Below, piece after piece: positions 5,690 through 63,604 of a DNA stretch of 64,000 nucleotides. This stretch comes from Mobula hypostoma. Taxonomy: Eukaryota. Below the pieces are notes generated by a model, which was not told where the DNA came from, ran no database searches, and saw only the letters and a list, made by a program, of their open reading frames with translations. Position 1 is the first letter of the stretch, and each line of letters starts with the position of its first letter. The position numbers were made by a program, and so were the translations under genes. The stretch lies in the NCBI RefSeq assembly GCF_963921235.1, contig NC_086108.1, positions 17,484,001-17,548,000 on the forward strand, in the 5' to 3' direction.

Positions 5690-6546
<857 letters not shown>

Positions 6547-10135: not shown

Positions 10136-13100
10136 TTTTTTTTTTACAAAATTAAAAGTTTATTTACATAACAAATACAGAAGGTACAGACATTCAGTAA
10201 GTATACACAGATTAAAATATCGTTACTACCATCTATAAAACAGTCAATACCATGGGGAGCCCACCGCCCCTGGAAATCCCCAATGTATGCATTGCGACTG
10301 TATGCTCCCGCTCCAAGGACAGCTGGGCATGAATGTATCCTAGGAAAAGGGGCAGGCAGTCTTGGCCAACCCCAGGAGCAAGCCCATCAGGAGATCCTTC
10401 TCACCACCTGCCCCCTTCCGAACTGGGTCCCCGTATATGAGGAGCACAGAACTAAAATGCAGCCAGAACCTCAGCAGCAGCCCCTTTAGAAACTCAAACA
10501 GAAGCTGCAACCTCTCAGATTCCGTGTAAGTACAGTACACTGACTCCTCACCACCACAGAATGGACAGATGGACAGCCTGCTCAAAAACCTGTTGTACAG
10601 TACTGCCCAATGCAACATCTGTCACCCCAGGTCCCCATGGTATGGAGGAAGGATCCCTGCATAAAGAGACTTTTACTGGGGACCTACTCTTCTGCCAGAT
10701 GGTAACACGGACTGCCAAGGTGAGTCTGGTCTGCAGACGAAGGAAAGGAAGTGAAAGGTGTACAGGAGCAGCTTGTATAAGAAACACTTCAGAGTGTCAC
10801 GGAAGGGCACGGTGGGCATCCCCGCGAGATGGCTTATGTCATGCGGGACCCTCTCCTGCATGGTCTCCTTTGTCCTGGGTCCAACGAGCACATCGGGCGG
10901 TGGTGCAACCAGAATCCCTCCACTTCCCTGCCACCCCCGACACCCACTGTGATAGGATCAGGATCAGTTCCCCCAACAGCTAGAGCACTGCCCAATGGCA
11001 CAGGAGCACCCTGCCTAGATGAGGCTAGTCCCCATGCAATTCGCAGTTCCCTGCAGAAGCAGGGTAGTTCTCTCAAAGCGGCACGGCTGAAGCCGTCCAC
11101 CGGGATTCATATGCCCTCCTGCGGAGAAAGTGTATCGCCAGCGTATGCCATTTCGGAGGGTGGTCACAGTACAGGTATCACTGCAGGGTTCTGAGGCAAA
11201 GAGCTGCCAGCTTGGTGTGCATGCACACCCGAGACTAACTGCCCTCTGCGATTGGAAGACTCAGGACCACTGCAGAGACCCAAGGCCTCCTACTGCCCCA
11301 GAAGAAGTCCTCCAGCCTCTTCTGGATCCTGGATACAAACGTTGTGGGTGGGACTAAAGTAGTCAGCTGGTATCACACCATGGAAGTGACCAGCGCCCCA
11401 GCCAAGCAGAGACTTTTGTCTCTAAATACTGCCAGTTCGCTGGCCGGGGCTTCTCTGTCGAGATCAGGTAGACCCCCAAGTAGAGGAGGTGTGTGATGCT
11501 CTATGCAAAGGGCCTCAACCCCTCTGGTAGGGAGTCCACCTGCCACTGACCCACCAAATGGCCCACACTCTTCTCCCAGTTGACCCTTGTAGACAATGCA
11601 TCCGAGAAGACCTACTGGCAGTCTTGCAGCCTCTGCAAGTCATCTGGGTCAGTGACAATAAGGAGGATGTCATCGGCGTAAGCCGACAGGAGAAACTCCA
11701 TGTCTGGTTCATGTAGAACCAAACCCATTAACCTCTTGCAGAGAAGGCACAGGAATAGCTCCACGCAAACCAACTGTCTCGACATGGGGTACCCTGACTC
11801 ACCCCTGCCCCAAAGCACAAGGGTGCTGTCAAGGACCCATTGATCTTAACTATGCACTCTGCGGCAGTGTACAGCAGTCAGATGTGGGCCATAAAATGCT
11901 TGCAGAGACCCAAAAAGGTACTCGTGGTCCACCCTGTCAAATGCCTTCTCTAGGTCGAGGGAGAGAAGAGCGAATGACATTCCAGCCTCCTGGCACAGGT
12001 AGACCAGATCCCTGACAATGTGGATATTGTCCTGGATTGACCGCCTCGGGACCGTGTAGGACTGGTTAGGGTGGACCACTTGCGCCAGCACGGAGCCCAG
12101 ACAATTGGCCATTGCCTGGGCAAAGATCTTGTACTCCACAATGTGGAGGGATACTGGGCGCCAATTCTGCAGGCAATGAAGATCCCCCTTCTTTGGCAGC
12201 AGGGCCACGACTGCTCTGCGCCAGGAGAGGGGCATCTCACCCATTGCCATACTCTCCTCCGGTACTCCTGCATGATCAGCACCTGTCCCAGAAGGCCCGG
12301 AGGAGTTCGACGATCAACCCATCTAGTCCTGGGGACTTGCCTCTCTGTAGCCAGTTGAGGGCACTGGTCAGCTTCACCGAAGTTAGCGGTACATCAAACC
12401 ACTCAGCACACCCAGGGCTGACCCTCGGCAAGTCCTCCCACAGATTCTTGTGTGCATCCTCACTGCATGGGTCCGGCGAGATTAGAGCTTCAGAAAAGAA
12501 ATGAACTTCTGCAACAATTCTCGTCGGATCCGTGATGGAGGAGACATTCTCAGCCAGTAATTCCACGAGCTGCCAGCGAATACACCTCTTCTCAACAGAG
12601 TAGAAGAAAAGTGAGGCCTGGTCCAGATTCTGCAGCATCTGGACCCGTGATCTCAGGTATGCGCCTTGGGACCTCTCAAGCTGCAGGTGCCTCAGGACTT
12701 CTTTCTTCCGCTGGTACTCATCCCAATGGTCCCCACTGATTGGCCCTAGCCAGGACTCCAAGTCAATCAACTCCTTCTCGAGCCTATCAACCCTGGACAT
12801 CAACGTGCATATTCCTGGCAGAACAGTCAGACATGAGCCTTGCCCATATCCCACCTGAGCCTCAGAGAGGCAAAACTCCCCTGCTTCTCCTGCCAGGTAT
12901 TCAAGAACTGCTGGAACGAATCCCGGAACCAGCCATCTCCAGCAGCCGGTTGTTGAAATGCCAGTACATGGACCCTACCCATGCTGGCAGCCCATTCAGC
13001 TCTGCCCACACCAGTAGGGCTCTGAGCACACAACCGGCTGCATGGAGGTAGCCAACACCTGGAACACCTACGCCCTGCAGGTGTACAGTTGATTTATCCC

Positions 13101-14345
13101 CGAGCCCCCACCCTCTCCATACCTCCTTGAGAAACACAGAGGTCATGGTGAAGGCTCTGCCAAACAACGACCAACTCCGAGGACACAACTTCCTCACCGA
13201 TGCTCGACTACCCTTTCCTTGAGGGTTCTGTTGAAATCACCCTCCAGGATAATGCACTCGCTACGATCTATGACCCCAGCAATGCAGACACCTCTTGGAA
13301 CAGGCGCACCTGTGTCGGGTCGGGCTCAGGGGCGCACGCATTTACAAAATGCATTGGCATGCCATCCTGATGCACGGCGAGGTGAAACAGACAGCCAGGC
13401 ACAAGTTTCTGAACCGACATTATTTCAGGCTGGGAAAAAAGGGGCCAAAATGATGGCTACCCCACTGGAAGTAGAGCTGAGGTGGCTCATGTGGACCACC
13501 TCTTGCCATTTCCAGAATCCAGGTGGATTAGTCTCCTGGAACAGCGTGAGTTTCCTTCAGGAAGCTCACCGCATATCTCCTGTCCTGGAGGACAGAGAGA
13601 TGATGGACTCCCCCTACCGCCATTGATGTTAAGGGTCACAACACTCAGCTTCATGGCGCATCTTATTGAAACCCCTCACCAGAGCCCCTGGGAGAAGAAG
13701 CAGAGCTCTCCTTCGAGCCCTCTCCCGTCTTTGCCCTACAACCCTTCTCCAGGGACTCCAAGATCCTCTTAGCAACACTCACAACACGCTGGAGGAACTC
13801 AGCAGGTCGGGCAGCATCTGTGGAGACGATGAGTCAACGTTTTCTGGCTGTAATCCTTCGTCAGAACTGTAGAGGGAAGGGGCAGAGGCCCTATAAAGAA
13901 GGAGTTTCTTAAACTGGCGCCTCTCCTTACGGGTCACCTCAGCTCCCCTCCCCTTCTTTTGGAGGACCATGTGGATTGATGAAACTACCCCTTCCAGAAC
14001 TGACGAGCGACCTGTGGCCAACTGGGACTTGAAAGGTTTCCTCCAGTAGTCCCTCACGACAGCCCAATTTCCTCCAGAGTCCCTCCCCAAGGAATACCTG
14101 CTTTGAGTGTGCAGTCTTGTACAAAGGCACATCTATCTCCCCACACGATCTCTCTACAGTGGCGCTGCTCACCAGCCTGGAGGTCAGCCTGGAAGATGCC
14201 TTCCCAGCAGAGGGTCCCTGGACGACAGCTCGAGGGAACAAACTCTGCATATACAGCCTTTGCAGGGGGTAAATCCTTTTCCTCCTCCTCTGGCTCCTGA
14301 TCCCCAGTCTCAGGGAACACATCCCTCCGTCATTTCAGGCCACAG
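10136..14345 (-). mobile_element. Tx1-like (L1 clade) non-LTR retrotransposon, degraded near-complete ORF2
   Basis: APE endonuclease start MKLSVVTLNINGG at 13654. RT pieces GKSPGLDGL, SWRRAVVALLPKKGDL..LQNWRPVSL, SLDLEKAFDRVDHEYL and LSAYADD. C-terminal CPFCGGEES. AATAAA (10159-10164) precedes A10 (10136-10145). The 5' boundary is approximate. Confidence 0.88.
13778..13895 (-). mobile_element. Penelope-terminus-derived repeat with degenerate hammerhead motif, within or next to the 5' part of the Tx1 element
   Basis: Reverse complement resembles 35520-35623. Minus strand reads cagttCTGACGAaggattacagccaGAAAAcgttgact. Confidence 0.7.
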
Positions 14346-20228: not shown

Positions 20229-22950
20229 AGTTGTGTCCGTGCATAACTACATATTGATTAAATAATAGCATGCATGGGAGAGATGGCTTTAACTGGTGTA
20301 TTCACATTGCAGCAATAGAAAGTGAGAGAACAATGTGCATGCATAGACAACAGCGCATGCGCAGACAACAAATCAATACATAGTGCTAAGGGGGGGGGTC
20401 ATTGCTCTGAAAGAAATAGATCCATACATTACACTTCCTCCCCTTTTAGATTAATGCTACATAAAACTATATATGTACAAAACACTCAATTTCCCTTTCA
20501 TAGACCCATATTCCAAATAAACATGCTTTCACAATAACAGTCCATAACTATTCTAAAGGTTCAGTCTTTTGGGTGGTGCTCTGTTTCTTTCAGGATAGCA
20601 CCTCTGGACTTGTAGAGTGGCATCAGGTTTGGTAGGTGTCTTGTCTAAGACAACGTTCTCAGTTTCTGGTGTCACATTGCTATCAGTGACATCATTACTG
20701 AGAGTAAATCTGGTGACTGTAATGTGTCTGTCTTTTTGGATGCAGTCAACTCAGGTGTGTTCTTCGGTGGAGTATCCAGTCTCTGGTCCACATAACATCT
20801 CCATGTCTGATCTCCAACATCCACTGTGTACAACAGTGGTCCAGTTCTTGTAGCTATCCTTCTCAGTAATCATGCGCTAGGACTTCCTGTCCAATCTTGA
20901 AGCTTTTTGCTGCTTCACTTGGCAACTATCTAAACTGTTTATTCTGTACCTCCCTCCGTAGGTCTGGTTTTAGGAGGTCTATGCGAGATCTCAGATTCCT
21001 GCTCATGAACAGCATTGCAGGTGTTTGATTTGTCGTCACCTGAACAGAGTTTCCAATACACAAAAAGGAAGTTGTCTACCTTGTGCTGTAGATAAATGTC
21101 CTCCTTGTCCATCGCTTTAATGGACCTCTTGAAGGTTTGAATAAACCTTTCAGCTAACCCATTCGGTGCTGGGTGGTGAGGAGCTGACTTGAAATGTCTG
21201 ATGCCATTTTTCTTCATGAACAGTCTGAACTTTTCTGATATGTATTGTGGTCCCTTATCACTCACAATTTGTTCTGTTAAACTGTTTCTGGTGAAGATAG
21301 TCCTCGGGATGGTGACAGTCTTTACTGAGGTGATTGCTTTCATTGGTATAATCTCTGGCCACTTTGAATGAACATCCACAACAATCAGAAACATGGAGCT
21401 CATGAATGACGCAGCAAAGTCAATATGTACTTTTTGTCATGGTGATGACGGCCTCTCCTATGGGTGTAATGGTGCTTGAGGGGGATGCATTTTGAACTTT
21501 TTGGCATCTTGAACAGCTTTAGCCAAATTTTCAATCTGTTTATCTATTCCCTTCTCAAAACTTTCTCATTAGCATTAAACAGCTGTGACAGCCTCTGGTT
21601 AATGCTACCATTTGGGCTGCAGTGCCTGTTGACACTACATCGAGAGCTTTGATTGAGTGTCAGTCTATTTTGGATTTTTCTCAACCATTCACGTCTGAAA
21701 AGTGCTGGCCCTCCTGTTTTCGATACATTACACTTCAACTGCTGTGTTTTTCCTCCGTACATCACATTCACCTTCAGTTTGCCTTTGGGAGGCACTTTTT
21801 CACCTGTGTAGTTCTTTAGCGTCACTGAGGTCTTCTATGAAAGACAGTCTGTTGTAGTCAGCCTCTGGAATTATAGACAAAGCTGACCCTGTATCCAGCT
21901 CCATTTACAGTTTTACACCAGACACACCTATTGTGATCCAGATGATTTTGTGATCTGCTTCAGTAATACTATGCAGTTCTAGGCATGACAGCTCACCTTT
22001 GTCAGACTCTTTTTTTAATATTCGGTAACTTTATGCATTTACTTAGTTTTGTATTTGAGACTTTTCACTCGGTTGTGCTTTTTGTCTGCCTTGCACATTC
22101 TATCTATGTGACCTTGTCTGTGACACTTTCTGAGACTTTGAACCAACAGCATCATGGGAGGATCTGCCACATCAATAACATCTTTGGCTTTCTGGGACAT
22201 CTTGAGCATTTTACATTCTAACCTCCTATTCTGTAGTTCCTTTGCTGCAGTCTCTAACAATATTGCAATGGCCAATGCCTGTTCTAAGATTAGGTCTTTT
22301 TTGGACAATAACCTCTATGCATGCCAGATACAAGTCTGTCCCTTAATGTATCAGAAAGTCCGTCTCTAAAGTCACAGTACTGGGAAGGTTTTGATAGTTC
22401 TGCAATATATTCAGAAATGCTTTCATCTTTTGACTGGTTCCTTTTGAAAAATCTAAATTTCTCAACTATTACCAACGGTTTAGGGCTAAAGTGATTTTGT
22501 AAAGTTGTAACAATTTCAACAAACGTCTTGCTTGCTGGCTTTCCAGGGGTTACTAAGTTGTTTAAGAGACTGTATGTTCTTGCACCCATTAAGTAGGGGC
22601 TTTCTTTTACTCCTCCACATTGTTCGCATTACAATAAAGTTCCACTCTCTCAATATATGAATCCCAGCCTTCATGAGCACTATCAAATTCATTAACTTTC
22701 CTGACTGAAGCCACCAACACATTATTTTCACTTTAAATTCTGCGAGTCTTTCACCGTGTACTACACACTGTATTTGCGCCTTTGTTAGTGTTCGTGACAG
22801 TTTTCTCGTGCTGTTCAAGTCTTGCTGTTTCGTCCCAATATTGTCAGTGCAGTTTGTGATATTTTCTGACATTCAGGTTCGTACTCGTTGCCAGTTTGTG
22901 TCTGTGCACAACTACATATCAATTAAATAAATGCATGCACACGGGATAGT
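20229..22950 (-). mobile_element. Degraded Gypsy LTR retrotransposon (gag, protease, integrase; RT/RNase H absent)
   Basis: 3' LTR 20229-20433 preceded by PPT AAAAGGGGAGGAAG. Integrase FLIVVDVHSKWPE...IVSDKGPQY...NGLAERF. Protease MELDTGSALSI near 21870-21905. Gag FFKRNQSKDESISEYIAEL. PBS TGGCAACGAG at 22884-22893 next to a 5' LTR remnant. Confidence 0.88.
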
Positions 22951-28414: not shown

Positions 28415-28755
28415 AATGAAAAGCAAAAAACTCTCAGTTGCTGGAAATCGGAAATAAAAGTTGAAAATGCTGGAAACTCTTTGCAGGTCAGGTAGAATCT
28501 GTGGATAGAGAAACTGTTAAACATTTCAGGTCTCAGTGGTGGATCCCAGACCTGAACCATTAACTAGAACATACAGCAGTACAATACAAGAACAGACTCT
28601 GGCCCACAGTGTTATGCTGAGCTAATTAAGCTGATGACAACTAATTCCTGCTGTCTGTCCACAGTTCATATCCCCTCCCCATTCTCTTTGTTCCGTTGCT
28701 CTTTCCACAGATGCTGCCTGACCTGTCAAATTATTCCAGTATTTTCTGCTTTGTC
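28415..28755. repeat. Degenerate palindromic Penelope-terminus-derived element split by a CR1 tail (about 28566-28695)
   Basis: Left arm aaaatgctggaaact...caggtcagg..gaatctgtgga is complementary to the right arm tccacagatgctgcctgacctg...ttccagtatttt. Confidence 0.55.
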
Positions 28756-30915: not shown

Positions 30916-32330
30916 TCTCAGTCTTTGCCACTCTACAGAAAGTGATGCATTTGTCCAACCTCACCTTTTAGCTAATATTGTGTACACCAGGTAATATCTG
31001 GAGAAACATCTTCAGCACCCTCTCCAAAGTCTCTATATCTCTGAATTTTTTCAATGATTTTAAGTTGCCTGGCCCCCACCACTTTATTTTCACCATGGAT
31101 GTCCAGTCCCTATATACTTCCACCCCCCACCAGGAAGGTCTCAAAGCTCTCCGCTTCTTTTTGGATTCTAGACCTAACCAGTTCCCCTCTACCAACACTC
31201 TGCTCCGTCTAGTGGAATTAGTCCTTACTCTTAATAATTTCTCCTTTGGCTCCTCCCACTTCCTCCAAACTAAAGGTGTAACCATGGGCACCCATATGGG
31301 TCCCAGCTATGCCTGCCTTTTAGTCGGCTTTGTGGAACAATCAATGTTCCAAACCTATTCTGGTACCTGTCCCCCACTTTTCCTTCGCTATATCAACGAC
31401 TGCATTGGCGCTGCTTCCTGCACGCATGCTGAGCTCGTTGACTTCATTAACTTTGCCTCCAACTTTCACCCTGCCCTCAAGTTTACCTGGTCCATTTCCA
31501 ACACCTCCCTCCCCTTTCTTGATCTTTCTGTCTCTATCTCTGGAGCCAGTTTATCTACTGATGTCTACTATAAGCCTACTGACTCTCACAGCTATCTGGA
31601 CTATTCCTCTTCTCACCCTGTCTCTTGCAAAAATGTCATCTCCTTCTCGCAATTCCTCCGTCTCTGCTGCATCTGCTCTCAGGATGAGGCTTTTCATTCC
31701 AGGACAAAGGAGATGTCCTCCTTTTTAAAAGAAAGGGGCTTTCCTTCCTCCACCATCAATTCTGCTATCAAACGCATCTCCCCCATTTCACGCACATCTG
31801 CTCTCACTCCATCCTCCCGCCACCCCACTAAGAATAGGGTTCCCCCTGTCCTCACCTACCACCCCACCAGCCTCTGGGTCCAACATATAATTCTTCGTAA
31901 CTTCTGCCACCTCCAATGGGATCCCACCACTAAGCACATCTTTCCCTCATCCCCTCTCTCTGCTGTCAGCAGGGATCGCTCCCTACGTGACTCCCTTGTC
32001 CATTCGTCCCCCCCCATCCCTTCCCACCGATCTCCCTCCCGGCACTTATCCTTGTAAGCGGAACAAGTGCGACACATGCCCTTACACTTCCTCCCTCACT
32101 ACCATTCAGGGCCACAAACAGTCCTTCCAGGTGAGGCGACACTTCACCTGTGAGTCAGCTGGGGTGATAAACTGCGTCCGGTGCTCCCGATGCGGCCTTC
32201 TATATATTGGTGAGACCCGATGCAGGCTGGGAGACCATTTCGCTGAACACCTATACTTTGTCCGCCAGAGAAAGCAGGATCTCCCAGTGGCCATACATTT
32301 TAATTCCACGTCCCATTCCCATTCTGATAT

Positions 32331-35174
32331 TGATGCAGATTGTTATTAATGATTATGATATAGTTGGGATCACAGAGACATGGCTCCAGGGTGACCAGGG
32401 ATGGGAGCTCAACGTTCAGGGATATTCAATATTCAGGAGGGATAGACATGAAGGAAGGGGAGGTGGGGTGGCGTTGCTGGTTAAAAAAGAGATTAACGCA
32501 ATAGAAAGGAAGGACATAAGCCGGGAAGATGTGGAATCGATATGGGTAGAGCTGCGTAACACTAAGGGGCAGAAGACGCTGGTGGGAGTTGTGTACAGGC
32601 CACCTAACAGTAGTAGTGAGGTCGGAGATGGTATTAAACAGGAAATTAGAAATGTGTGCAATAAAGGAACAGCAGTTATAATGGGTGACTTCAATCTACA
32701 TGTAGACTGGGTGAACCAAATTGGTAAAGGTGCTGAGGAAGAGGATTTCTTGGAATGTATGCGGGATGGTTTTTTGAACCAACATGTCGAGGAACCAACT
32801 AGAGAGCAGGCTATTCTGGACTGGGTTTTGAGCAATGAGGAAGGGTTAATTAGCGATCTTGTCGTGAGAGGCCCCTTGGGTAAGAGTGACCATAATATGG
32901 TGGAATTCTTCATTAACATGGAGAGTGACATAGTTAATTCAGAAACAAAGGTTCTGAACTTAAAGAGGGGTAACTTTGAAGGTATGAGACGTGAATTAGC
33001 TAAGATAGACTGGCAAATGACACTTAAAGGATTGACGGTGGATATGCAATGGCTAGCATTTAAAGGTTGCATGGATGAACTACAACAATTGTTCATCCCA
33101 GTTTGGCAAAAGAATAAATCAAGGAAGATAGTGCACCCGTGGCTGACAAGAGAAATTAGGGATAGTATCAATTCCAAAGAAGTAGCATACAAATTAGCCA
33201 GAGAAAGTGGCTCACCTGAGGACTGGGAGAAATTCAGAGTTCAGCAGAGGAGGACAAAGGGCTTAATTAGGAAGGGGAAAAAAGATTATGAGAGAAAACT
33301 GGCAGAGAACATAAAAACGGACTGTAAAAGCTTTTATAGATACGTAAAAAGGAAAAGACTGATAAAGACAAATGTAGGTCCCCTGCAGACAGAAACAGGT
33401 GAATTGATTATGGGGAGCAAGGACATGGCAGACCAATTGAATAATTACTTTGGTTCTGTCTTCACTAAGGAGGACATAAATAATCTTCCAGAAATAGTAA
33501 GGGACAGAGGGTCCAGTGAGATGGAGGAACTGAGTGAAATACATGTTAGTAGGGAAGTGGTGTTAGGTAAATTGAAGGGATTGAAGGCAGATAAATCCCC
33601 AGGGCCAGATGGTCTGCATCCCAGAGTGCTTAAGGAAGTAGCCCAAGAAATAGTGGATACATTAGTGATAATTTTTCAAAACTCGTTAGATTCTGGACTA
33701 GTTCCTGAGGATTGGAGGGTGGCTAATGTAACCCCACTTTTTAAAAAAGGAGGGAGAGAGAAACCGGGGAATTATAGGCCGGTTAGCCTAACGTCGGTGG
33801 TGGGGAAACTGCTGGAGTCAGTTATCAAGGATGTGATAACAGCACATTTGGAAAGCGGTGAAATGATCGGACAAAGTCAGCATGGATTTGTGAAAGGAAA
33901 ATCATGTCTGACGAATCTCACAGAATTTTTTGAGGATGTAACTAGTAGAGTGGATAGGGGAGAACCAGTGGATGTGGTATATTTGGATTTTCAAAAGGCT
34001 TTTGACAAGGTCCCACACAGGAGATTAGTGTGCAAACTTAAAGCACACGGTATTGGGGGTAAGGTATTGGTGTGGGTGGAGAATTGGTTAGCAGACAGGA
34101 AGCAAAGAGTGGGAATAAACGGGACCTTTTCAGAATGGCAGGTGGTGACTAGTGGGGTACCGCAAGGCTCAGTGCTGGGACCCCAGTTGTTTACAATATA
34201 TATTAATGACTTGGATGAGGGAATTAAATGCAGCATCTCCAAGTTTGCGGATGACACGAAGCTGGGTGGCAGTGTTAGCAGTGAGGAGGATGCTAAGAGG
34301 ATGCAGGGTGACTTGGATAGGTTGGGTGAGTGGGCAAACTCATGGCAGATGCAATTTAATGTGGATAAATGTGAAGTTATCCACTTTGGTGGCAAAAATA
34401 GGAAAACAGATTATTATCTGAATGGTGGCCGATTAGGAAAAGGGGAGGTGCAACGAGACCTGGGTGTCATTATACACCAGTCATTGAAAGTGGGCATGCA
34501 GGTACAGCAGGCGGTGAAAAAGGCGAATGGTATGCTGGCATTTATAGTGAGAGGATTCGAGTACAGGAGCAGGGAGGTACTACTGCAGTTGTACAAGGCC
34601 TTGGTGAGACCACACCTGGAGTATTGTGTGCAGTTTTGGTCCCCTAATCTGAGGAAAGACATCTTTGCCATAGAGGGAGTACAAAGAAGGTTCACCAGAT
34701 TGATTCCTGGGATGGCAGGTCTTTCATATGAAGAAAGACTGGATGAACTGGGCTTGTACTCGTTGGAATTTAGAAGATTGAGGGGGGATCTGATTGAAAC
34801 GTATAAGATCCTAAAGGGATTGGACAGGGTAGATGCGGGAAGATTGTTCCCGATGTTGGGGAGGTCCAGAACGAGGGGTCACAGTTTGAGGATAGAGGGG
34901 AAGCCTTTTAGGACCGAGATTAGGAAAAATTTCTTCACACAGAGAGTGGTGAATCTGTGGAATTCTCTGCCACAGCAAACTGTTGAGGCTAGTTCATTGG
35001 CTATGTTTAAGAGGGAGTTAGATATGGCCCTTGTGGCTACAGGGGTCAGGGGGTATGGAGGGAAGGCTGGGTTCTGAGTTGGATGATCAGCCATGATCAT
35101 AATAAATGGCGGTGCAGGCTCGAAGGGCCGAATGGCCTACTCCTGCACCTATTTTCTATGTTTCTATGTTTCTA
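32331..35174 (+). mobile_element. Young CR1 LINE with uninterrupted ORF2 (endonuclease plus RT), lacking only the extreme N-terminus
   Basis: Open frame to the stop at 35077 (GITETWL, MGDFN, SDHN, FADD). Tail (tttctatg)n. 6-bp TSD TGATAT at 32325-32330 and 35175-35180. Confidence 0.96.
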
Positions 35175-35519
35175 TGATATGTCTATCCACGGCCTCCTCT
35201 ACTGTCAAGATGAAGCCACACTCAAGTTGGAGGAACAACACCTTATATTCCGTTTGGGTAGCCTCCAACCTGATGGCATGAACATTGACTTCTCTAACTT
35301 CTGTTAATGCCCCACCTCCCCTTCGTACCCCATCCATTATTTATTTATTTATTTATTTATTATTATATCTTTTTTTCTCTCTCCTTTTTCTCCCTCTGTC
35401 CCTCTCACTATACTCCTTGCCCATCCTCTGGGCTTCCCCCCTCCCCCTCCTGTCTTCTCTTATCATTTTGGATCTCCCCCTCCCCCTCCCACTTTGAAAT
35501 CTCTTACTATATCTTCTTT

Positions 35520-35561
35520 CAGTTAGTCCTGATGAAGGGTCTTGGCCCGAAATGTCAACTG
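35520..35561 (+). ncRNA. Minimal type I hammerhead ribozyme motif in the Penelope 3' terminal repeat (mutated)
   Basis: agtc CTGATGA a gggtcttggccc GAAA tgtc aact. CpG-type changes relative to the 52127 copy. Confidence 0.6.
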
Positions 35562-36140
35562 TACCTCTTCCTATAGATGCTACCTGGCCTGCTGCGTTCA
35601 CCAACAATTTTTATGTGTGTTGCTCTTTATATCCTTTCTGTAACATGACAACCAGGACTGCATGCAATATTCTAAAAGTGGTTTAACCAAAGTTTTATAT
35701 AGCTGCAACATGACTTGGTGATTCTTATACTCAGTGCCCTAACCAATGAAATCAGGTTTGACAGATGCAATCTTTATAATCCTACCTACATGTGCTGCTG
35801 CTTCCAGGAAGCTAGACAATCTGCACATCAATGCCCTTTAAGGTCCTTCCACTTACTGTAAATTTCCCCTTTATATTTGACTTTCTAAGGATAAAACTCC
35901 ATCTGCCATTTCCCTGCCCATGTCTGCCACTGATCTATATCCTCTGGCAACATTCCTCACCATCCACAACACTGACAATTTTTGTAGTCCTCTGCAAACT
36001 CACTCATCAACCCACCCACATTTTCAGCAAAATCATCTATGTAAATCACAAAGGGAATTCTTCTTGCAGCTTAACTTTATGCTTGCTTATGTTTGTATAA
36101 TTATACTGTTTATCTGAAAATGGTAAATGGATTTTCAGTC

Positions 36141-36365
36141 AATGCAGACAAAATGCTGAAGGAACTCAGCAGCCCGGGCAGCATCTATAGAAAAGAGTAC
36201 AGTCGACATTTCAAGCCAAGGCTCTTCATCAGTCCTGATGAAGGGTCTTGGCCAGAAACGACTGTTGACTCTTTTCCATAGATGCTGCCTGGCCTGCTGA
36301 TTTCCTCCAGCAATTTATGTCTGTTGCTTGGATTTCCAGCATGTACAGATTTTCTTGAGTTTGCA
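36141..36365. repeat. Palindromic element formed by two back-to-back Penelope termini
   Basis: Arms about 36143-36232 and 36235-36325 are reverse complements centred on TTCATCAG-tc-CTGATGAA. Confidence 0.85.
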
Positions 36366-38409: not shown

Positions 38410-39448
38410 ATTTGCTGGTATTTAATTGAATTCATTCTTCCCTCTACCAGTGAAATATTCCCTGTGCACTGGCTGCAATACAAGCCTAAAGCATGATCAA
38501 TCCACCCCCATGCTTAACAGTGGAGAGGTGTTCTTTTTATGAAATTCTGCCCCCTTTTGTCTCCAAACATACCTTTGCTCATTGCGGCCAGAAAGTTCTA
38601 TTTTAACTTCATCTGTCCAAGGACTTGTTTCCAAAATGCATCAGGCTTGTTTAGATGTTCCTTTGCAAACTTCTGACGCTGAATTTTGTGGTGAGGATGC
38701 AGGAAAGGTTTTCTTCTGATGACTCTTCCATGAAGGTCATATTTGTGCAGGTGTCGCTGCACAGAGGAACATTGCACCACCACTCCAGGGTCTGCTAAAT
38801 CTTCCTGAAGGTCTTTTGCAGTCAAACGGGGGTTTTGATTTGCCTTTCTAGCAATCCTACAAGCAGTTCTCTTGGAAGGTTTTCTTGGTCTTCCAGGCCT
38901 CAACTTGGCCTCCACCGTTCCTGGTAACTGCCATTTCTTAATTACATTACGAACTGAGACAACAGCTACCTGAAAACACTTTGCTATCTTCTTATAGCCT
39001 TCTCCTGCTTTGTGGGCATCATTTATTTTAATTTTCAGAGTGCTAGGCAGCTGCTTAGAGGAGCCCATGGCTGCTGATTGTTGGGACAAGGTTTGAGGAG
39101 TCAGGGTATTTATAAAGCTTTGAAATTTGCATCACCTGGGCTTTCCTAATGATGACTGTGAACAAGTCATAGCCCTAACAAGCTAATTAAGGTCTGAGAC
39201 CTTGGTAAAAATTAACTGAGAACTCAAATCTCTTGGGGTGCCCAAACTTTTGCATGGTGCTCCTTTCCTTTTTTTCCACTCTAAAATTGTACAAAACAAA
39301 AATAATACACTAATCTTGCTAAAATGTTGAAAAGAAGGATTGATCTTTAACTTTATGACTTTTGGAGATCAGTTCATCTTCTACTCACGTAATTATTCAC
39401 AGTAACAGAAATTTTGACCAGGGGTGTCCAAACTTTTGCATGCTACTG
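38410..39448 (-). mobile_element. Tc1 transposon, 5' half (IR/DR-type left end plus N-terminal transposase)
   Basis: ORF 38598-39089 with HKAGEGYKKIAK and GRPRK paired-like HTH. TIR CAGTAGCATGCAAAAGTTTGGACACCCC flanked by TA (39449-39450). Inner direct repeat near 39235-39256. Confidence 0.92.
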
Positions 39449-49503: not shown

Positions 49504-50511
49504 AGTTATGCAGCATGAGAAAAGGACCTTCAACACTGAGCGAACACTTCATCCATTTATGCGATATTGAAATATAGCACGGAATAGGCCCTTCCGGCCC
49601 TTTGAGCCACACCACCCAGCATAACCCTAGCTCAATCACAAGACAATTTACAATGACTAATTAACCTACCAACCAGTGCATCTTTGGACTGTGGGAAGAA
49701 ACCAGAGCACCTGGAGGAAACACACCTCTTCACAGGGATAAAAGTCAAACTCCTTACAATCAGTGCTGGGAATACACTAATTCTATGTGGGACATAAACA
49801 GTACAGCACATTTTGCCCACTATGTTTCTGCTGAACACAATACCAAATTAAACTAAATCCTTTCTGCCTGTACACCACAGATATCCCTCCAGGTCCTGCA
49901 TATTCATGTAACTACAGGTGTTTTGAACAAACACTATTTGTTTGCTTCGACCATTACCACTGGCACACACTGTGTACAACCTTGCCCTGCACATCTCCCT
50001 TATACTTTACCCTTCTAACTTTAAATGCATATCCTGTAGCAATTGATTTTTGTGTGCTGGGAAAAAGATTCTGACCATCTACCCTATCTATGCCTCTCAT
50101 CATTTTATAAACAAGTCTGCAATCATCTTCCCTCGGCCTCCAGTGCTTCAAACAAAAGAATTGAAGATTATCCAACCTTATAGCTCATACCCCCCAGGAT
50201 GGGCAGTAATCAAGTAAAATTCTTCTACACCATTTTCACATTTATCTATTGACGCTCATCAACTCCCCTTCAGATTCCACCACTCAGCTACATTCTATCT
50301 GACTATTTAGCTCCAGATTCTACCATTTAACTACGTTTCGTGACAATTTATCAAAGCCATTTAAGCTACCAACCCACACATCTTTGGGATGAGGGAGGAA
50401 ATCAGAGCACTTGACAGAAGCCACACAGTCAGAAGGAAAACATGCACACTCCATCAGAAAGAGGACTTAAGTTCAGAATTGAACTTGGGTCCTTGACACT
50501 GTGAGGATGAA

Positions 50512-51892
50512 TCAGAATCAGGTTTATTGTCACTGACACAAGTGGTGGAATCTGTTGTTTTGTGGCAGCAGTACAATGCAGGCATATCAAATTATGTTAA
50601 GTTAAAATGAAATAAATAGATAGTGCAAAAAAGGAATAGCACAGTAGTATTCATAGGTTTATAGAGTAATCAGAAATGTGATGAAGGAGGGAAAAAAGCT
50701 GATCTTAAAATATTGAGTGTGGGTCATAATGTTCCCAGACCTTCTCCCTGATGGTAGTAATGAGAAGAGGGCATATCCCAGATGATGAGGCTCCTTAATG
50801 ATGGATGCCACCTTCTTGAAGCATCACCTTTTCAAGATGGCCTCAATTTTGGAGAGGCTTGTGCCCATCATAGAGCTGGCTGCATTTACAAACCCATAGC
50901 AGCCTCTTACATTTGTCTACATTGGAGTCTCAATGCCAGAAGGTGAGGCAGCTAGTCAGAATGTTCTCCACAGTACATCTGTAGAAATTTGCTGATTCTT
51001 TCGTGACATACCAAATCTCAAGCTCCTAATGAATTAGAGTCACTGGTGTGCCTTCATCACGATGCATGAAAATGTTGGCCCCAGGATAGATCCTCTGAGA
51101 TGTTGACACCCTAGAACCTGAAGCTGCTCACTCTTTCAACAGCAAATCCCTCAACGAGGATTGGTGTGTGTTCACCTGCCTTCCACTTCCTGGCATCCAT
51201 AATGAATTCTTTGGTCTTGTTCATGTTGAATCCAAGGTGGTTGTGACACTACTCAACCAATCTATCTACTTCACTCCTGTATGCCTCTTCATCCCCATCT
51301 GAGATTCTGCCAACAGCAGCTATGTTAATTGCATACTTATAGATGGTGCTTGAGTGCCACACAGTCATGTGTGTAGAGAGAGTAGAATAATGGGCTAAGC
51401 ACGCATCACTGAGCTGGCAGCAAGATCACCTACCAAGAGCACTGCCACAGGAAAGAGGAATGCACCATCAAGGACTACCACCATCAAGGCCAAATTCTCT
51501 TCTCGCTGCTACCATCGTGAAGGAGGTATAAGAGGCTTAGGTCTCACACCTCCAGGTTCAGGAACAGTTATTATCGTTCAACCATCAGATTCCTGAACCA
51601 GTGTAGATAACTTTACACCATAACACTGAATTGGTCAACAAACACACCCTATGGACTCACTTTTAAAGACTCTACAGCTCTTGTTCACGGTATTTATTAT
51701 TTGGTTGTATTTTTGTAATTGCACAGTTTGTCTTATTTTGCACATTAGCTGCTTGTCAGTCTTTGTGTGTAATTTTTTCATTGATTCTATTGTATTTCCT
51801 TGTTCTACTTTGAAGGAGTGCAAGGATGTGAATCTCAGGGTAGTATTTGGTGACATATACATACTTCAATAATAAATTTACTTTGAACTTTA
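50512..51892. mobile_element. Rex1/Babar-like fragments (minus about 50512-51412, plus about 51420-51892)
   Basis: RT and C-terminal remnants. Tails aatcagaatcaggtttattg and aataaatttactttgaactt. Confidence 0.65.
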
Positions 51893-52039
51893 AGAAGGAG
51901 ATCCTACCATTTATCCATACTGACTGTGGTCCCCTGATGAGGATCTAATTGCAGTGGGAGGTACAGAGACCCAGGTTTTGAAGCTTGTTGATGGCTTCCA
52001 GCTGTGCCATCAACAATTTTACTAACGCAGACGCAATCC

Positions 52040-52225
52040 CTCCTATCATTTCTATCATTTCCTATCATTTTGGATCTCCCTCTCCACCTCCCACTTTCAA
52101 ATCTCTTTCTATCTCTTCTTTCAGTTAGTCCTGACGAAGGGTCTCACCCCGAAACGTCGACTGTACCTCTTCCTATAGATGCAGCCTGGCCTGCTGCGTT
52201 CACCAGTACTTTTTATGTGTGTTGC
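52040..52225 (+). mobile_element. Isolated Penelope 3' terminal fragment
   Basis: Close similarity to 35460-35623. Confidence 0.85.
52127..52162 (+). ncRNA. Minimal type I hammerhead ribozyme motif with intact core
   Basis: Stem I AGTC/GACT, core CTGACGA, stem II GGG/CCC, GAAA, palindromic ACGT stem III, GUC cleavage triplet (cut after 52158). Confidence 0.72.
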
Positions 52226-52849
52226 ACCAATTTTACTAAGGCAGTTCCCTACAATATACAGGAAACTTTGCTCCATCTTCCAAATGGAATTTGTTTTGTT
52301 CCAGAGGAGCAGTGTCAAGGAAGAAAGTGAAAGAGAATGAAAAATTTGCAACTAAAGGTGTTTTTACACTCACATAGTTCACAGATCAGTGCTCTGGAAC
52401 CAAACTGCTGGTGTATTTCAGCAAGACCTCTGCATTACAACCACAGAATGCTAGATAATACTTCCTTAACTTCTCTGACCAGCAGCTCACATTCCTCCAG
52501 GGCAGTATGTTCTCATTAAAATGCATGGAAACATGCATGTTAATTCCTCCAATTGCTTGAACTAACAATGCCTTGTGAGCATCCATTGCATCAATGTATC
52601 GGCTACTGGCTGTGGAGTCCAGTGTTCTATCACTAACAGTGTTTGGCTCCATCAAATGAACCCACAGAGGAACGACGAGACAAGCTGTGTGTCTCTGGAG
52701 GCTGTAACTTCTTGCAGAACCCAAAATAATCATCTTCAGAAAGTCACTGCTGAGAATCACTAAAATTACACAAACATCGATTCTGATTTTATACCGTAAT
52801 TGAGTTCTCTTCAAAGTCATGTCTTATCTCCAGGGAAACTTCCCCCCAT

Positions 52850-53310
52850 GTGCTCAATGTCATTTCCAGTACGCAAGTGTAAAGGAGAATGAAATAATTG
52901 TTACTCCAGATCCGATGCATATATAAAAAAGATAACGAACACTATAATATAAAATACAATAAATATAAATATACAAGATAATTACACATACATAGATTGA
53001 TTATATTTTCATAAAGTGACGCTAGGCACGGGAGTGTCTGTACATAAGGTGACTGACAGGAAATGATAAAATAGTGGTGGTTGGGGGCAAGGAGGGATAG
53101 GATGGAGAGTGGAGATATTGGTCAGCCTTACTGCTTGGAGAAAGTAACTGTTTTTGAGTCTGGTGGTCCTGGCGTGGATGCTACATAGTCTCCTCCTTGA
53201 TGGGGGTGGAACAACAATCCATGAGCAGGGTAAGTGAGATCCTTCTTGATTTTGCTGGCCTTTTTTCTGGCACCTTTCTGTATACATGTCCTTGATGCCA
53301 GGTAGGCTAG
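52850..53310 (-). mobile_element. Rex1/Babar-like 3' fragment
   Basis: PSRRRLCSIHARTTRLKNSYFLQAVRL motif in ORF 53009-53287. Confidence 0.65.
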
Positions 53311-53331
53311 AACAGTCCCTTCAACTCTTTC

Positions 53332-53713
53332 TCATCACACACTCCCAGGGTAGGGGTAGATGGGTTAAATACAGAGTAAAACTTCCTCTACACCAGTTCC
53401 CATCTTGCTTAATGTCATTGGTCCATGACACAAAACAGGTTGGGAAACCCTGCTCTACCCTACCCTTGTTTCATCACACATTCCCAGGGAATGAACACAT
53501 GGATTCGATACAGAGTAAAGCTCCTTCCACACTGTCCAATTACACCCTTTCAGAGCAGGGACAGATAGATTGCTCTACACTGTCCCATTTTCATCGCACA
53601 TTCCCAGGGCAAGAACAGATGGATTAGATACAGAACTAAGCTCCCTGTAAACTGTGCCATCACACACTCCCAGGGCAGGGACTGAGGGTTAGACACAGTA
53701 AAGTTCCTCTACA
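53332..53713. repeat. Degenerate copy of the about 60-bp satellite, inverted relative to 5690-6282
   Basis: catcacacactcccaggg...acagagtaaagctcc.tctacactgtccc units. Confidence 0.75.
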
Positions 53714-54242
53714 TATGGATTACAATGATACAAATGTCTCACTGACACCTCGAGACCATGCTGCATTCACTTTCCACTGGGATGGGGGTTAGAAATTTCT
53801 TTCAGTGTTTGGGTAAGGACTTCAATCCACAGCTGCTGACAAAGCTGTGCCAGCTAGTGAGGCCACACAGAAGCCCGGCATGATGTGGGAGGAGGTTGCC
53901 AAATCTTGCCCCAGGGCTCACTCTGCCAACAACAGCCATTTTCAACATCAACAACCTGTTGCTGTTGCATGGTGCCTTGAGTGCATTGAAATATCCCACA
54001 GGGCTACCCAGGGGACATTCTACAAATGCCTACCCACGTGGACCTCTTGGGGCAGGAGACCAAAAACTTAGAGGAGAGAGAGGCTGAGAGGCAACAAGTT
54101 CCAGAGCTTGGTTGAAGGGTTTCCTTGAGGTACCCTGATCTCCTCACACATTTCCTCCTGCCAGATCAGGGTTCAAAATAAATTCATTATCAAAGTGCAT
54201 ATATATCACTATAATGCAAATTACCCTGAGATTCATTTTAAT

Positions 54243-57090
54243 AACATAGAAACATAGAAACCCTACAGAAATTTACAGGTCCTTTGGCCCACAATGCTGT
54301 GCTGAACATGTACTTACTTTAGAAATTACCTAGGGTTACCCATAGCCCTCTAGTTTTCTAAGCTCCATGTACCTAACCTAGAGTCCCTTAAAAGACCCTA
54401 TCATATCCAGCTCCACCACTGTCGCCGGAAGCCCATTCCACGCACTCACCATCCTCTGCATAAAAAACTTACCCCGATATCTCCTCTGTACCTACTTCCA
54501 AGCACCTTAAAACTGTTCCCCTTCATGTTAGTCATTACAGCTCTGGGAAAAAACCTCCGACTCTCCACACAAGCAGTGCCTCTCATCATTTTATACACCT
54601 CTATCAGGGTCACCTTTCATCCCCCGTCGCTTCAAGGAGAAAAGGCCAAGTTCACTCAACCTATTCTCATACGGCATGCTCCCCAATCCAGGCAACATCC
54701 CTTGTAAATCTCCTCTGTACTCTTTCTGTAGTTTCCACATCCTTCCTGTAGTGAGGTGACCAGAACTGAGCACAGTACTCCAAGTGGGGTCTGACCAGGG
54801 TCCTACATAGCTGCAACATTACTTTTCAGCTCTTAAACTCAGTCCCACGGTTGATGAAGAAAAATGTACTATATGCCTTCTTAACCACACAGTCAACCTG
54901 CACAGCAGCTTTGAGTGTCCTACGGACTCCAAGGTCCCTTTGATCCTCCACACTGCCAAGAGTCTTACCATCAATTCTATATTCTGCCATCATATTTGAT
55001 ATACCAGAATGAACCACATCACACTTATCTAGGTTGAGCTCCATCTGCCACTTCTCAGCCCAGTTTTGCATCCTATCGATGTCCCACTGTAACCTCTGAG
55101 AGCCCTCCTCACTATCCACAACATCCCCAACCTTTGTGTCATCAGCAAATTTACTAACCTATCCCTCTACTTCCTCATCCAGGTCACTTATAAAACTCAC
55201 CAAGAGAAGGGGTCCCAGAACAGGTCCCTGAGGCACATCACTGGTCACCGACCTCCATGCAGAATATGACCTGTTTACAACCACTTTTGTGCCTTTTGTT
55301 GGCAAGCCAATTCTGGATCCACAAAACAATGTCCCCTTGGATCCCATGCCTCCTTACTTTCTCAATAAACCTTGTATGGGGTACCTCATCAAATGCCTTG
55401 CTGAAATCCATATACACTACATCCACATCTCTACCTTCATCAATGTGTTTAGTCACATCCTCAAAAAATTCAATCAGGCTCGGAAGGTACGACCTGCCTT
55501 TGGCAAAGCCATGCTGACTATTCCTAATCATATTTTGCCTCTCCAAATGTTCATAAATCCTGCCTCTCAGGATCTTCACCATCAATTTACCAACCATAGA
55601 ACTAAGACTCACTGCTCTATAATTTCCTGGGCGATCTCTATTCTCTTTCTTGAATAAGAGAACAAACATCTGCAACCCTCCAATCCTCCAGAACCTCTCC
55701 CATCCCCATTGATGATGCAATGATCATTGCCAGAGGATCAGTAATCTCCTCCTTCACCTCCCACAGTATCTCATCCAGTCCGGTCCCGTTGACTTATTCA
55801 ACTTGATGTTTTCCAAAAGCTCCAGCACATCCTCTTTCTTAATGTCTATATGCTCAAGCTTTTCAGTCTGCTCTAAGTCATCCCTACAATCTCCAAGGTC
55901 CTTTTCTGTAGTGAATACTGAGGCAAAGTATTCCTTAAATATCTCCGCTGTCTCCTCCAGTTCCATACACACTTTTCCACTGTCACACTTGATTGGTCCT
56001 ATTCGTTCAAGTCTTATTTTCTTGCTATTCACATACTTGTAGAATGCCTTGCGGTTTTCCTTAATCCTGCTCACCAAGGCCCCTTCTGGATTTCCAAATT
56101 TCATTCTTAAACTCCTTCCTGCTACCCTTGTAATCTTCTAGATCTCTATCATTACCTTGTTTTTTTTGAACCTTTTGTAAGCTTTTCTTTTCTTCTTGAC
56201 TAGATTTTCAACAGCCTTTGTACACTGTATTTCCCAATACCAGATCAAATACAGCCTCTCCTCTCATGGACTTATCTACATATTGTGTCAGGAAACCTTC
56301 CTGAACACACCTAACAAACTCCACCCCATCTAAACCCCTTGCTCTAGGAAGATGCCAATCAATATTGGGGAAATTAAAATGTCCCACCACGACGACCCTG
56401 TTGTTATTACACCTTTCCAGAATCTGTCTCCCTATCTGCTCCTCGATGTCCCTGTTACTATTGGGTGGTCTATAAAAAACATCCAGTTGAGTTATTGACC
56501 CCTTGCTGTTCCTAACTTCCACCCACAGAGACTCAGTAGACAATCCCTCCTTTTCTGCAGCCATGATCAGCAGTGCTACACCCCCACTTCTTTTGCCTCT
56601 CTCCCTGTCCTTTCTGAAACATCTAAAGCCTGGCACTCTAGGTAGCCATTCCTGCCCCTGAGACAACCAAGTCTCTGTAATGGCCACAACATCATAGCTC
56701 CAAGTACTGATCCATGCTCTAAGCTCATCCGCTTTGTTCATGATGCTTCTTGCATTAAAATAGACACATCTCAAACCATCAGTCTGAGTGCATTCCTTCT
56801 CTATCACCTGCCTATCCTCCCTCTCACACTGTCTACAAGCTTTCTATATTTGTGAGCCAACCACCCCTTCCTTCATTCAGTTCGGTTCCCACCCCCCAGC
56901 AATTCTAGTTTAAACTCTCCCTAATAGTCTTAGCAAACCTCCCTGACGGGATATTGGTCCCCCTCAGATTCAAGTGCAACTTGTCATTTTTGTACAGGTC
57001 ACGCCTATCCCAAAAGAGGTCCCAAAGATCCAGAAATCTGAATCCTTGCCCCCTGCCCCAATCCCTCAGCCAACCATTTATTCTCCACCA
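54243..57090 (-). mobile_element. Degraded CR1 LINE spanning the ORF1 end and all of ORF2
   Basis: ORF pieces 56208-56807 (CVYFNARS, ITETWL), 55754-56104, 55238-55720 and 54826-55119. Tail aacatagaaacatagaaa. Confidence 0.92.
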
Positions 57091-58736
57091 TTTATCAATT
57101 TTCTTGCAGATATTCAGAGTAGTACAAAGAAATACAATAAAATCAATGAAAAGCTACACAGGAATAAAGACTGACAAGCATCTGATGTGCAAAATCAGGC
57201 AAACTATGGAAATACAAACAAATAAACTAACAAATACTATTGAACATGAGTTGTGGAGTCATTGAAAGTGGATAGGTTGTGGAATTAGTTCAGTCCTGAG
57301 GTGAATTAAGTTATCTGCTCTGGTTCAGGAGCCTGATGTTTGAAGGATAATAACTGTTCTTGAACTTGGTGGTGTGGGACCTCCTTCCTGATGGAGGGTT
57401 GGTAGTTTCATTAGCTATTGTAAATTGCTCCCTGCGTGTAGATGAACAGTAGAATCTGGGAAGATTTGATAAAAATATGGGATTAATATAGTGTTAGTGT
57501 AAATAGAGGCTAATAGTTGGTGTGATCTTGTGTGGCAAACAGCCTGTTTCCCTGCCGTATCACTCTATAGAACTCCAGCAGCAGAGGAGAGACCTAGGAA
57601 GGTGAAAAGCTGGAGGCAGGGACAGGAAAGAGATGTCAGCACAAATCTGATAGTTTGAAAACTGATGCGGTTTTCTGGGGATGAGACTGAGTCTGAGCAT
57701 GAAGCTGTAAGCACAGGGCAATGAGTGAGTGGGATATTGTGTGCATCTGGATTCTGGCTGTTTGTCTAACAGGATTACTGGGGCTTCAGCTGCTGGGCCC
57801 AGTGCCAAGTGCCTGGAGCAGAGAGACTGTTATACAGTGTAATATCCCCATGTGAGCCAACTAGCGCTCACATTAAGTGAGAGAGACACCAGTGACAGAG
57901 GGAGCTTCTCTGCATCAGTTATACAATCGCAGTGTCTACACCCAGCCACCAGAATGACAAGTCAGCCACACTCTGACCACCTTGATGCCTTTGTACTAAA
58001 ACTGAAACACTTTTGTGCACCAGTTGCATTTTTTCTTGTACAATTTGTGCATAATTTATATTTTTCTGGTGAATGCTGCTTCTATGATGCCACGTGCTTG
58101 CGATGCAGCTGCAAGTAGCTTCTCATTGCATACATGTCCGTCCTTGTGCATATGACAGTACACTTGGCTTGGACTCCAGTATTGTGACTTTGAGTGATCA
58201 AAAAGGGGGACTCTTATCAGAACAGGCTGCATTCAATTGTAATCACCCCATTATAGGAACGATGTGAAAGCTTTGGAGAGGGTGCTGAGAACTTTACTAG
58301 ATACTGCCTGGATTAGAGAGCATGTGCTATAAGGATACATTGGCCATAGATGGGTTGTTTACTCTGGGGCAGCAGAGAGTGAGGCGAGACCTGATAGAAG
58401 TTTAAAAGGTTATGTAAGGCATAGAAAAGACAGTCAGTATATTTCTCCCCAGAGTCAGAATGTCAAATAATAGAGGGCATGCATTTATGGCAAGAGGGGG
58501 ATAGCTCAAAGGAAATGTGTGGCCTAAGGTTCGGTGTCGGTGATTAGGTATCATTGGCTTAATTAGTTTGGCACAGCATCAAGGGCTGAAGGGGCTGAGG
58601 GGCCTGTTGCTCTGCTGTAAAATCAATCCTGTTGGAATGCCAATAGTACATTCAGCAAAGATCATTATTTCAGCCAAACCCATTTCAATGATAAATGAAT
58701 AAAACATTCAGGGGGTTTGAATTGGCAGAGAAAGTA

Positions 58737-58867
58737 TCTGATGATGGGTCACAGACCTGAAATGTTAACTGTTTCTCCTTCCACAGATTCTGCCTGGCCT
58801 GCTGAGTGTTCCCAGCCTTTTCTATCATCATTTCAGATTTCTAGCATCCACAGTTTTTAGATTTTCA
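58737..58867 (+). repeat. Old Penelope-terminus-derived repeat with degenerate hammerhead motif
   Basis: CTGATGA tgggtcacagacct GAAA tgtt aact...ccacagattctgcctggcctgctgag. Confidence 0.55.
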
Positions 58868-62909: not shown

Positions 62910-63344
62910 GTCTAACTGAATGATGGGATGAGCTCAAAAGGCTGAACATATTGAGATTATGGTGGTGATATGTTTAAACCTGGAGTCTTACAACATGGAA
63001 ACAGGCCCTTTGGCTCACTGAGTCTGCACCATCAACCATTCATTCACACTAATCTCATTTCATTCTACACACATTCTCATTGGGGCAAAGTACAGTGGCC
63101 AGTTAATCTACCAATCTAAACATCTTTGGGATATGGGAGGAAATCAGAGGATGGGTGAAACCCATTTGCTCACAGGGACAGCACGTAAACTCCACACAGA
63201 CAGCACCTGAGGACGTAATTAAACCCTGGTTTCTGGAGATGAGAAACATTGGCTCCATCTTTGGCACCGCTCTGCTGCCTTGTTCTATTCACTTGCTGAA
63301 ATAACCCCTGAACTGATAAACCTTTGACCTGGTAAAGTGTTTAC

Positions 63345-63604
63345 CTGGGGACTGTTGAGTGCTCCGTAGCCAACGGCCGGTGTGGATGGCAAGGACACAG
63401 AGGGAGAGCCGATTGACGATGTGATAACGGGGTATGGAGAGCCCAGTCCATTGACTGGAGAGGCCAAGCTTCCCAAGGGGGAGGTGAGGGGGCGCGAAGC
63501 ATTTATTGAAGATCCGATCATTGACTGGTGACCAACTACTGAGTTCACTGTTGAATGTGGGGATGCTGAGCTCATCGACGTGGAGTTCACTTGTATTGCC
63601 GAGT
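63345..63604 (-). CDS. rxrg: RXR-gamma-like coding exon 2 (A/B, AF-1 region), 260 bp, phase 1 to 0
   Basis: Ser/Pro-rich peptide (D)[12 protein letters not shown]...[36 protein letters not shown], resembling the fish RXRG N-terminus. Acceptor tttcttctccccacag, donor CCCCAG|GTAAAC. Confidence 0.9.

Follow-up and report, generated by a model that had tools for sequence, protein, structure and literature searches.

A minimal hammerhead motif in a solo Penelope-like terminus, likely a silent fossil, within a retinoid X receptor intron of the ray Mobula hypostoma

The window, meaning the whole 64,000-nucleotide stretch of Mobula hypostoma contig NC_086108.1 that we analyzed (positions are counted from its first letter), holds a retinoid X receptor (RXR) gene on its minus strand and, inside one intron of this gene, a hammerhead motif on the opposite strand:

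63604-63345, 14703-14565, ~6531-6343 and 5325-5164, minus strand: RXR exons
14704-63344, minus strand: 48.6-kb RXR intron, which holds the motif on its opposite strand

The exon peptide at 63291-63593 (minus strand) is 95% identical to an RXR of Hypanus sabinus. Among 17 matches to the exon peptide, 14 are named RXR-gamma and one plain RXR, and the top match (95%) is called alpha-B-like. The host gene, judged from these matches, is probably RXRG. A preliminary description had placed the motif antisense to the RXRG pre-mRNA: the orientation is right, with the motif on the plus strand and all four exons on the minus strand, and the gene is an RXR gene, but the gamma label is only probable given this mixture of names. 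The disagreement between the closest protein and the majority of matches suggests a naming inconsistency. Many LINE fragments are also scattered through the intron.

The motif lies in a short insertion whose parts are as follows:

52011-52030, plus strand: probable target-site duplication, left copy, AT-rich (17/19 match to 52225-52243)
52031-52059, plus strand: 5' junction, about 10 unassigned bases followed by repeats of the element's first 10 bases (TRF)
52060-52225, plus strand: 3' terminus of a Penelope-like element, present as a solo copy (pseudo-LTR remnant) that lacks the optional tail (identity, contig ends)
52126-52163, plus strand: minimal type I hammerhead motif (sequence, descriptor, fold)
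52178-52200, plus strand: predicted 8-bp hairpin 3' of the ribozyme, in a block common to the window copies (fold prediction)
52225-52244, plus strand: probable target-site duplication, right copy (sequence, flank comparison)

The solo terminus is 166 bp long, and genomic contigs have loose ends at both of its borders, 52060 and 52225. Over 52052-52225 it is identical to 35450-35623 at 154 of 174 positions (89%). TRF reports 3.1 copies of a 10-base period at 52041-52070, and the repeated 10-base units at the 5' junction are likely the product of reverse-transcription slippage. A flank match of 17 or more was reached by 11 of 3,000 random flank pairs. The terminus had been described as an orphan; it is indeed a solo copy, but a coding member of its family lies in the same window, at ~31038-35623.

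Within the terminus, the hammerhead motif can be parsed into the following parts, all on the plus strand:

52126-52130/52159-52163: stem I, 5 bp (four Watson-Crick pairs and one U-G)
52131-52137: core C3-A9, CUGACGA (N7 = C)
52138: extra A between positions 9 and 10.1
52139-52141/52148-52150: stem II, 3 bp with a 6-nt loop
52151-52153: G12-A13-A14
52154-52157: palindromic ACGU (15.2-16.2; stem III is absent in the monomer)
52158: C17, with the cut predicted after it

The sequence read back at 52127-52162 is identical to the letters given in the preliminary description, and the type I order CUGANGA ... GAAA ... UH is present at 52126-52163. The G10.1-C11.1 pair is present as G52139-C52150, with A52138 as the extra nucleotide. 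The palindromic stem III claimed earlier is the ACGU at 52154-52157, and the proposed cut site agrees with our parse, in which cleavage would be predicted after C52158 (C17). Stem I had been given as AGUC/GACU; these four pairs stand, and a fifth, U-G pair was missing from that account.

Does the motif have relatives nearby? A search of the window with nhmmer (E<1e-6) recovered eight terminus copies, six of which had built the profile. Six of the eight span the whole core and two lack its first half; set against these eight, the copy at 52127-52162 is the best preserved in the window, as claimed. The other copies, and the element to which one of them belongs, are listed here:

13747-13877, minus strand: diverged terminus copy with a degenerate hammerhead, in sense orientation to the RXR pre-mRNA
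28430-28532, minus strand: terminus copy without the CUGANGA half of the core
28695-28748, plus strand: terminus fragment, begins downstream of the ribozyme
31038-32334, plus strand: Penelope-like ORF of the same family as the solo terminus, 5'-truncated and frameshifted (homologues)
~32331-35176, plus strand: CR1-type LINE (a family name that we presume) inside the Penelope endonuclease domain (Pfam RVT_1 and Exo_endo_phos; junctions)
35177-35623, plus strand: remainder of the Penelope ORF, followed by its 3' UTR and a terminus whose hammerhead has decayed
36116-36359, both strands: inverted back-to-back pair of termini, with cores at 36232 (minus) and 36235 (plus)
58716-58859, plus strand: diverged, tailed terminus copy that keeps an intact core but no longer has stem I

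The Penelope-like ORF at 31038-32334 contains a reverse transcriptase (RT), a CX4CxxC linker and a GIY-YIG region with CCHH-type residues; its RT (31038-32009) has 64% identity to a Chiloscyllium protein, and the end of the ORF lies at 35179-35295. The hammerhead sits in the terminal repeat of this RT/GIY-YIG element, as 35450-35623 lies downstream of the ORF; its core there, at 35529, is accompanied by a broken 1.1-2.1 pair. Pfam returned no family for either of the two Penelope frames, so the assignment of the element comes from homologues. A GIY-YIG-like motif is present in 101 of the 120 homologues listed, and the CX2-5CxxC linker, which PMC8557442 assigns to Neptune and Nematis, in 99 of those 101. 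The family of the solo terminus is likely of Neptune type, a motif-based placement, the linker being present in Nematis too. We also asked whether the ORF might begin within the ribozyme, as it does in Anolis, and found no support for this: read from the core, the frame runs into a stop after at most ~15 codons, and the position equivalent to the Anolis-type ATG reads ACG here. The interrupting LINE has a long open frame (32171-35077) with endonuclease and RT domains, was inserted with a short duplication, and looks young. Its 968-aa stop-to-stop frame starts within Penelope DNA.

The two termini of the inverted pair, each with a CUGAUGA core, meet two bases upstream of this core and form a hairpin with a 2-base spacer. 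The minus copy of this pair is sense to the RXR pre-mRNA; it retains the core and stem II, with one A-U for G-C swap, but the 5' strand of its stem I is gone. Some of the window copies end where the solo terminus ends, and two run on into the tail; two 3' ends, with and without a tail, are known for Penelope elements (PMC11167929 and PMC8557442).

Across the six core-spanning copies, only 1 of 66 cells in core columns differs, vs. 42 of 162 non-core cells; the p-value for core conservation (3e-6) is overstated, because the copies are related and were partly found through the core. The pattern fits selection in the source elements followed by decay. Stem pairing in the six copies reaches 78% of cells, vs. 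at most 46% when the pairing is slid. Pairs changed on both sides number two in these six related copies, vs. a shuffled mean of 0.8, and 58 of 500 shuffles scored as high.

Could the motif be a chance match, or a degenerate repeat without ribozyme ancestry? Three results lean that way. Rfam gives no hammerhead match, with the gathering score reached nowhere in the window and nothing at E<=10 over 51900-52400. The folding energy of the motif alone is not significant (z -0.79), and the stem covariation among the six window copies is likewise not significant. In the face of the missing Rfam match and this z-score, we base the identification on the core descriptor together with the Penelope setting. 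We defined the full descriptor as the core, a minimal stem III, a stem I of at least 4 bp and a stem II of at least 3 bp. Four window sites have the core with a minimal stem III, and one of these four, the motif at 52127-52162, satisfies the full descriptor. Dinucleotide shuffling of the window (300 shuffles, 2-kb blocks, both strands) gave 87 core-level matches and no full-descriptor match, so that the descriptor search suggested earlier came out in favor of the motif. Against chance stand, besides these shuffles, the finding that most of the invariant columns belong to the catalytic core, the position of the motif at a Penelope 3' terminus, and the behavior of core-only matches in public contigs, none of which (0/55) has both stem lengths. 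The chance reading is already largely refuted, and we give it next to no probability; the earlier claim, that a Penelope-like terminus carries a minimal type I hammerhead, is borne out by descriptor and context.

Those 55 matches came from a pattern scan for outside relatives, which returned 5 viral and 50 metagenome loci; none combined a stem I of at least 4 bp with a stem II of at least 3 bp, blastn gave no matches, and all were taken as chance. A stricter hammerhead pattern found nothing in genome contigs or in viral contigs. A protein-guided viral scan for relatives yielded three stretches, none confirmed.

How abundant is the family, and how old is this insertion? Contigs from four runs were aligned to the solo-terminus region. 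In run X1, 58,268 contigs aligned, with a summed depth of ~4.2 million at 52147 and ~4 million over the motif, vs. 10.9 in the unique right flank; summed contig depth is not a copy number, as the tool itself warns. From this depth, together with eight copies in 64 kb, we infer roughly 100,000 family copies or more, which implies that the hammerhead-tail family is very abundant in the ray. The solo copy differs from the family majority at six or more terminus positions (52081, 52086, 52108, 52146, 52147 and 52183). At 52147 it has C, where G makes up 98% of the X1 depth; the family G would add a fourth stem II pair, U-G, which C52147 breaks in the solo copy. A contig from organism B (52190-52757) bridges the 3' junction with nine substitutions and five gaps, and because the junction is shared with a related species, the insertion is likely older than that split. 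The left junction was bridged by none of the contigs listed.

For hundreds of contigs the match breaks off precisely where stem I has its 5' edge (52127) and at the tail-less 3' end (52225). The consensus of the loose ends before 52127 ends in C, so that the outer U-G of stem I would be C-G in other subfamilies. These ends bear on another possibility, that the terminus is a short non-autonomous element (SINE-like or a retrozyme monomer) copied whole by Penelope machinery, rather than a truncated long element. Several window copies start near the 5' edge of the ribozyme, loose ends before 52127 occur in 414 contigs of X1, and non-LTR retrozymes are described as Penelope derivatives and were found in the one chondrichthyan sampled (bioRxiv 10.64898/2026.07.22.740005). 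The solo copy, however, has its start (52060) within sequence that runs on into the 3' UTR of the long element; 5' ends differ between copies; no tandem unit with a ribozyme was found in 50000-54500; and the loose ends at 52127 agree poorly (0.37-0.45) and are consistent with other subfamilies or flanks. We regard a non-autonomous unit as very improbable.

Like the ray copy, non-LTR retrozymes have a type I hammerhead, a Penelope origin and dispersed monomers; unlike it, they are defined by tandem units that each carry a hammerhead (same preprint), whereas the ray copy stands alone and corresponds to the 3' end of a long element. The two or more consecutive tandem hammerhead units that define a retrozyme are absent from the solo copy. 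Tandem hammerhead retrozymes are reported there in one chondrichthyan.

The known system that the motif resembles most closely in its details is the minimal hammerhead (min-HHR) of metazoan Penelope-like elements (Cervera and de la Pena 2014, PMC4209133). Shared with that class are the type I form, the conserved core, the extra base between 9 and 10.1, the G10.1-C11.1 pair, the palindromic 15.2-16.2 without loop III, a stem I of 4-5 bp, and an occurrence mostly as solo copies of truncated elements, with opposite-strand pairs as well. The host, a ray, differs, and the searchable part of the supplement has no shark, Callorhinchus, Leucoraja or Squalus entry. Stem II has 3 bp in the solo copy and 4 in the family majority, vs. 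7-8 bp in Schistosoma, with Acropora similar; an Acropora Neptune hammerhead in that supplement has the same CUGACGA-A-GGG and CGUC layout as the ray motif. In sequence and context, the motif has the features of the Penelope minimal hammerhead class.

At the level of the element, Neptune as described by Craig et al. 2021 (PMC8557442) shares the C-terminal GIY-YIG, the CX2-5CxxC linker, the hammerhead in the terminus, the optional tail and inverted 5'-truncated copies; the window element, by comparison, is truncated and interrupted, and the linker also occurs in Nematis. Poseidon of Anolis carolinensis (Frangieh et al. 2024, PMC11167929) is alike in its pseudo-LTR hammerhead, two 3' ends and AT-rich target, and unlike in that the Poseidon clade is without the linker and the Anolis ORF begins within the ribozyme.

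Is the copy in the RXR intron likely to cut? All of its catalytic residues and stem I are intact. Its stem III is without a loop, so a monomer cannot form the active fold, and the structure predicted by ViennaRNA is a rod that joins G5-A6-C7-G8 to C15.2-G16.2-U16.1-C17 (CGUC), each of the core-burying pairs (G5-C17, A6-U16.1, C7-G16.2 and G8-C15.2) having a probability of 0.98 or more. The double hammerhead is predicted at -13.7 kcal/mol, whereas two monomers reach -22.8 and the best dimer -25.1; since ViennaRNA omits the tertiary contacts of the core and Mg2+, these values understate the active fold. Since the Acropora Neptune hammerhead has the same layout, rods of this kind probably arise generally as a side effect of the palindrome. 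On its own, stem II of the solo copy is predicted to prefer a slipped register that leaves C11.1 unpaired.

In active tandem elements, two motifs would pair via ACGU and exchanged stem I strands; the element protein probably helps the paired motifs, and a cut after C17 would process the precursor RNA. Lunse et al. (RNA Biol) have reportedly found that small hammerheads cleave as dimers. The dimer model of cleavage by minimal hammerheads is summarized in PMC6765202, and in Schistosoma the monomer gave no cleavage and the dimer low cleavage (PMC4209133). The Anolis hammerhead cleaved only with the element protein, RNA-seq showed no ends at the site, and cleavage was dispensable for insertion in vitro (PMC11167929).

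Self-cleavage of this copy, which the preliminary description proposed as possible, is not supported as likely. The copy is solo; its nearest same-strand copies, 6.6 kb and ~16 kb away, have stem I or III broken; it carries C52147; its predicted fold buries the core; and it lies antisense to the only transcript identified here, the RXR pre-mRNA. As no intact partner lies nearby, the only transcript identified runs on the other strand and the predicted fold buries the core, cutting in the cell is unlikely at this locus. A competent solo copy active in the cell, whether in a trans dimer or together with the element protein, that processes an antisense RXR-intron transcript would draw on the intact core, ACGU palindrome and stem I, on a family abundant enough that partners could exist, and on the protein-assisted cleavage seen for the Anolis element (PMC11167929). 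It is opposed by the opposite strand of the only transcript identified here, by the private stem II change with its slipped isolated hairpin and unpaired C11.1, and by the low dimer activity published for minimal hammerheads (PMC4209133 and PMC6765202), and we think it very unlikely. A broader version, in which intact-core solos among ~100,000 ray tail copies stay rods until family RNA or Penelope protein opens the ACGU and then cut in trans transcriptome-wide, antisense RXR RNA included, is very improbable.

Three possible signs of expression or cleavage in the aligned runs were set aside. Depth in run X9 was rejected as an expression signal, as the RNA identity of the run was guessed and a single short contig lies in the unique flank. 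The higher relative depth of X9 from the ribozyme onward was rejected as a sign of cleavage, as the rise begins at 52146, before the cut site, and its strand, ends and level are not readable. The X6 contig joint at 52158 is one of many joints.

Taken with the evidence above, the motif is very probably a minimal hammerhead in the solo tail of a 5'-truncated Penelope-like insertion, likely of Neptune type and likely a silent fossil at this locus. Such an insertion would begin with the element endonuclease nicking AT-rich DNA; reverse transcription would start at the tail-less 3' site and stop after ~170 bases, leaving a severely 5'-truncated insertion in the RXR intron that then drifted neutrally. 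A search of openly accessible literature for ray and shark descriptions found none of this family, and the one text that combines hammerhead ribozyme, Penelope and shark uses "shark" only as a shape analogy. The finding adds a ray family to a class known since 2014 and otherwise matters little. The single antisense copy at 52127-52162 is not the best test case; a family this abundant is good material for genome-wide covariation and for mapping of cut ends.

Other repeats lie elsewhere in the window. An ORF at 38598-39131 (minus strand) resembles by eye the N terminus of a Tc1/mariner transposase, and the fragments at 11846-12974 and 20939-21436 (both minus strand) look by eye like a Tx1/L1-type RT and an LTR-element integrase; Pfam gave no match on 12279-12974. 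A repeat unit of ~60-75 bases forms arrays at 53318-53713 and 5828-6271, in opposite orientation.
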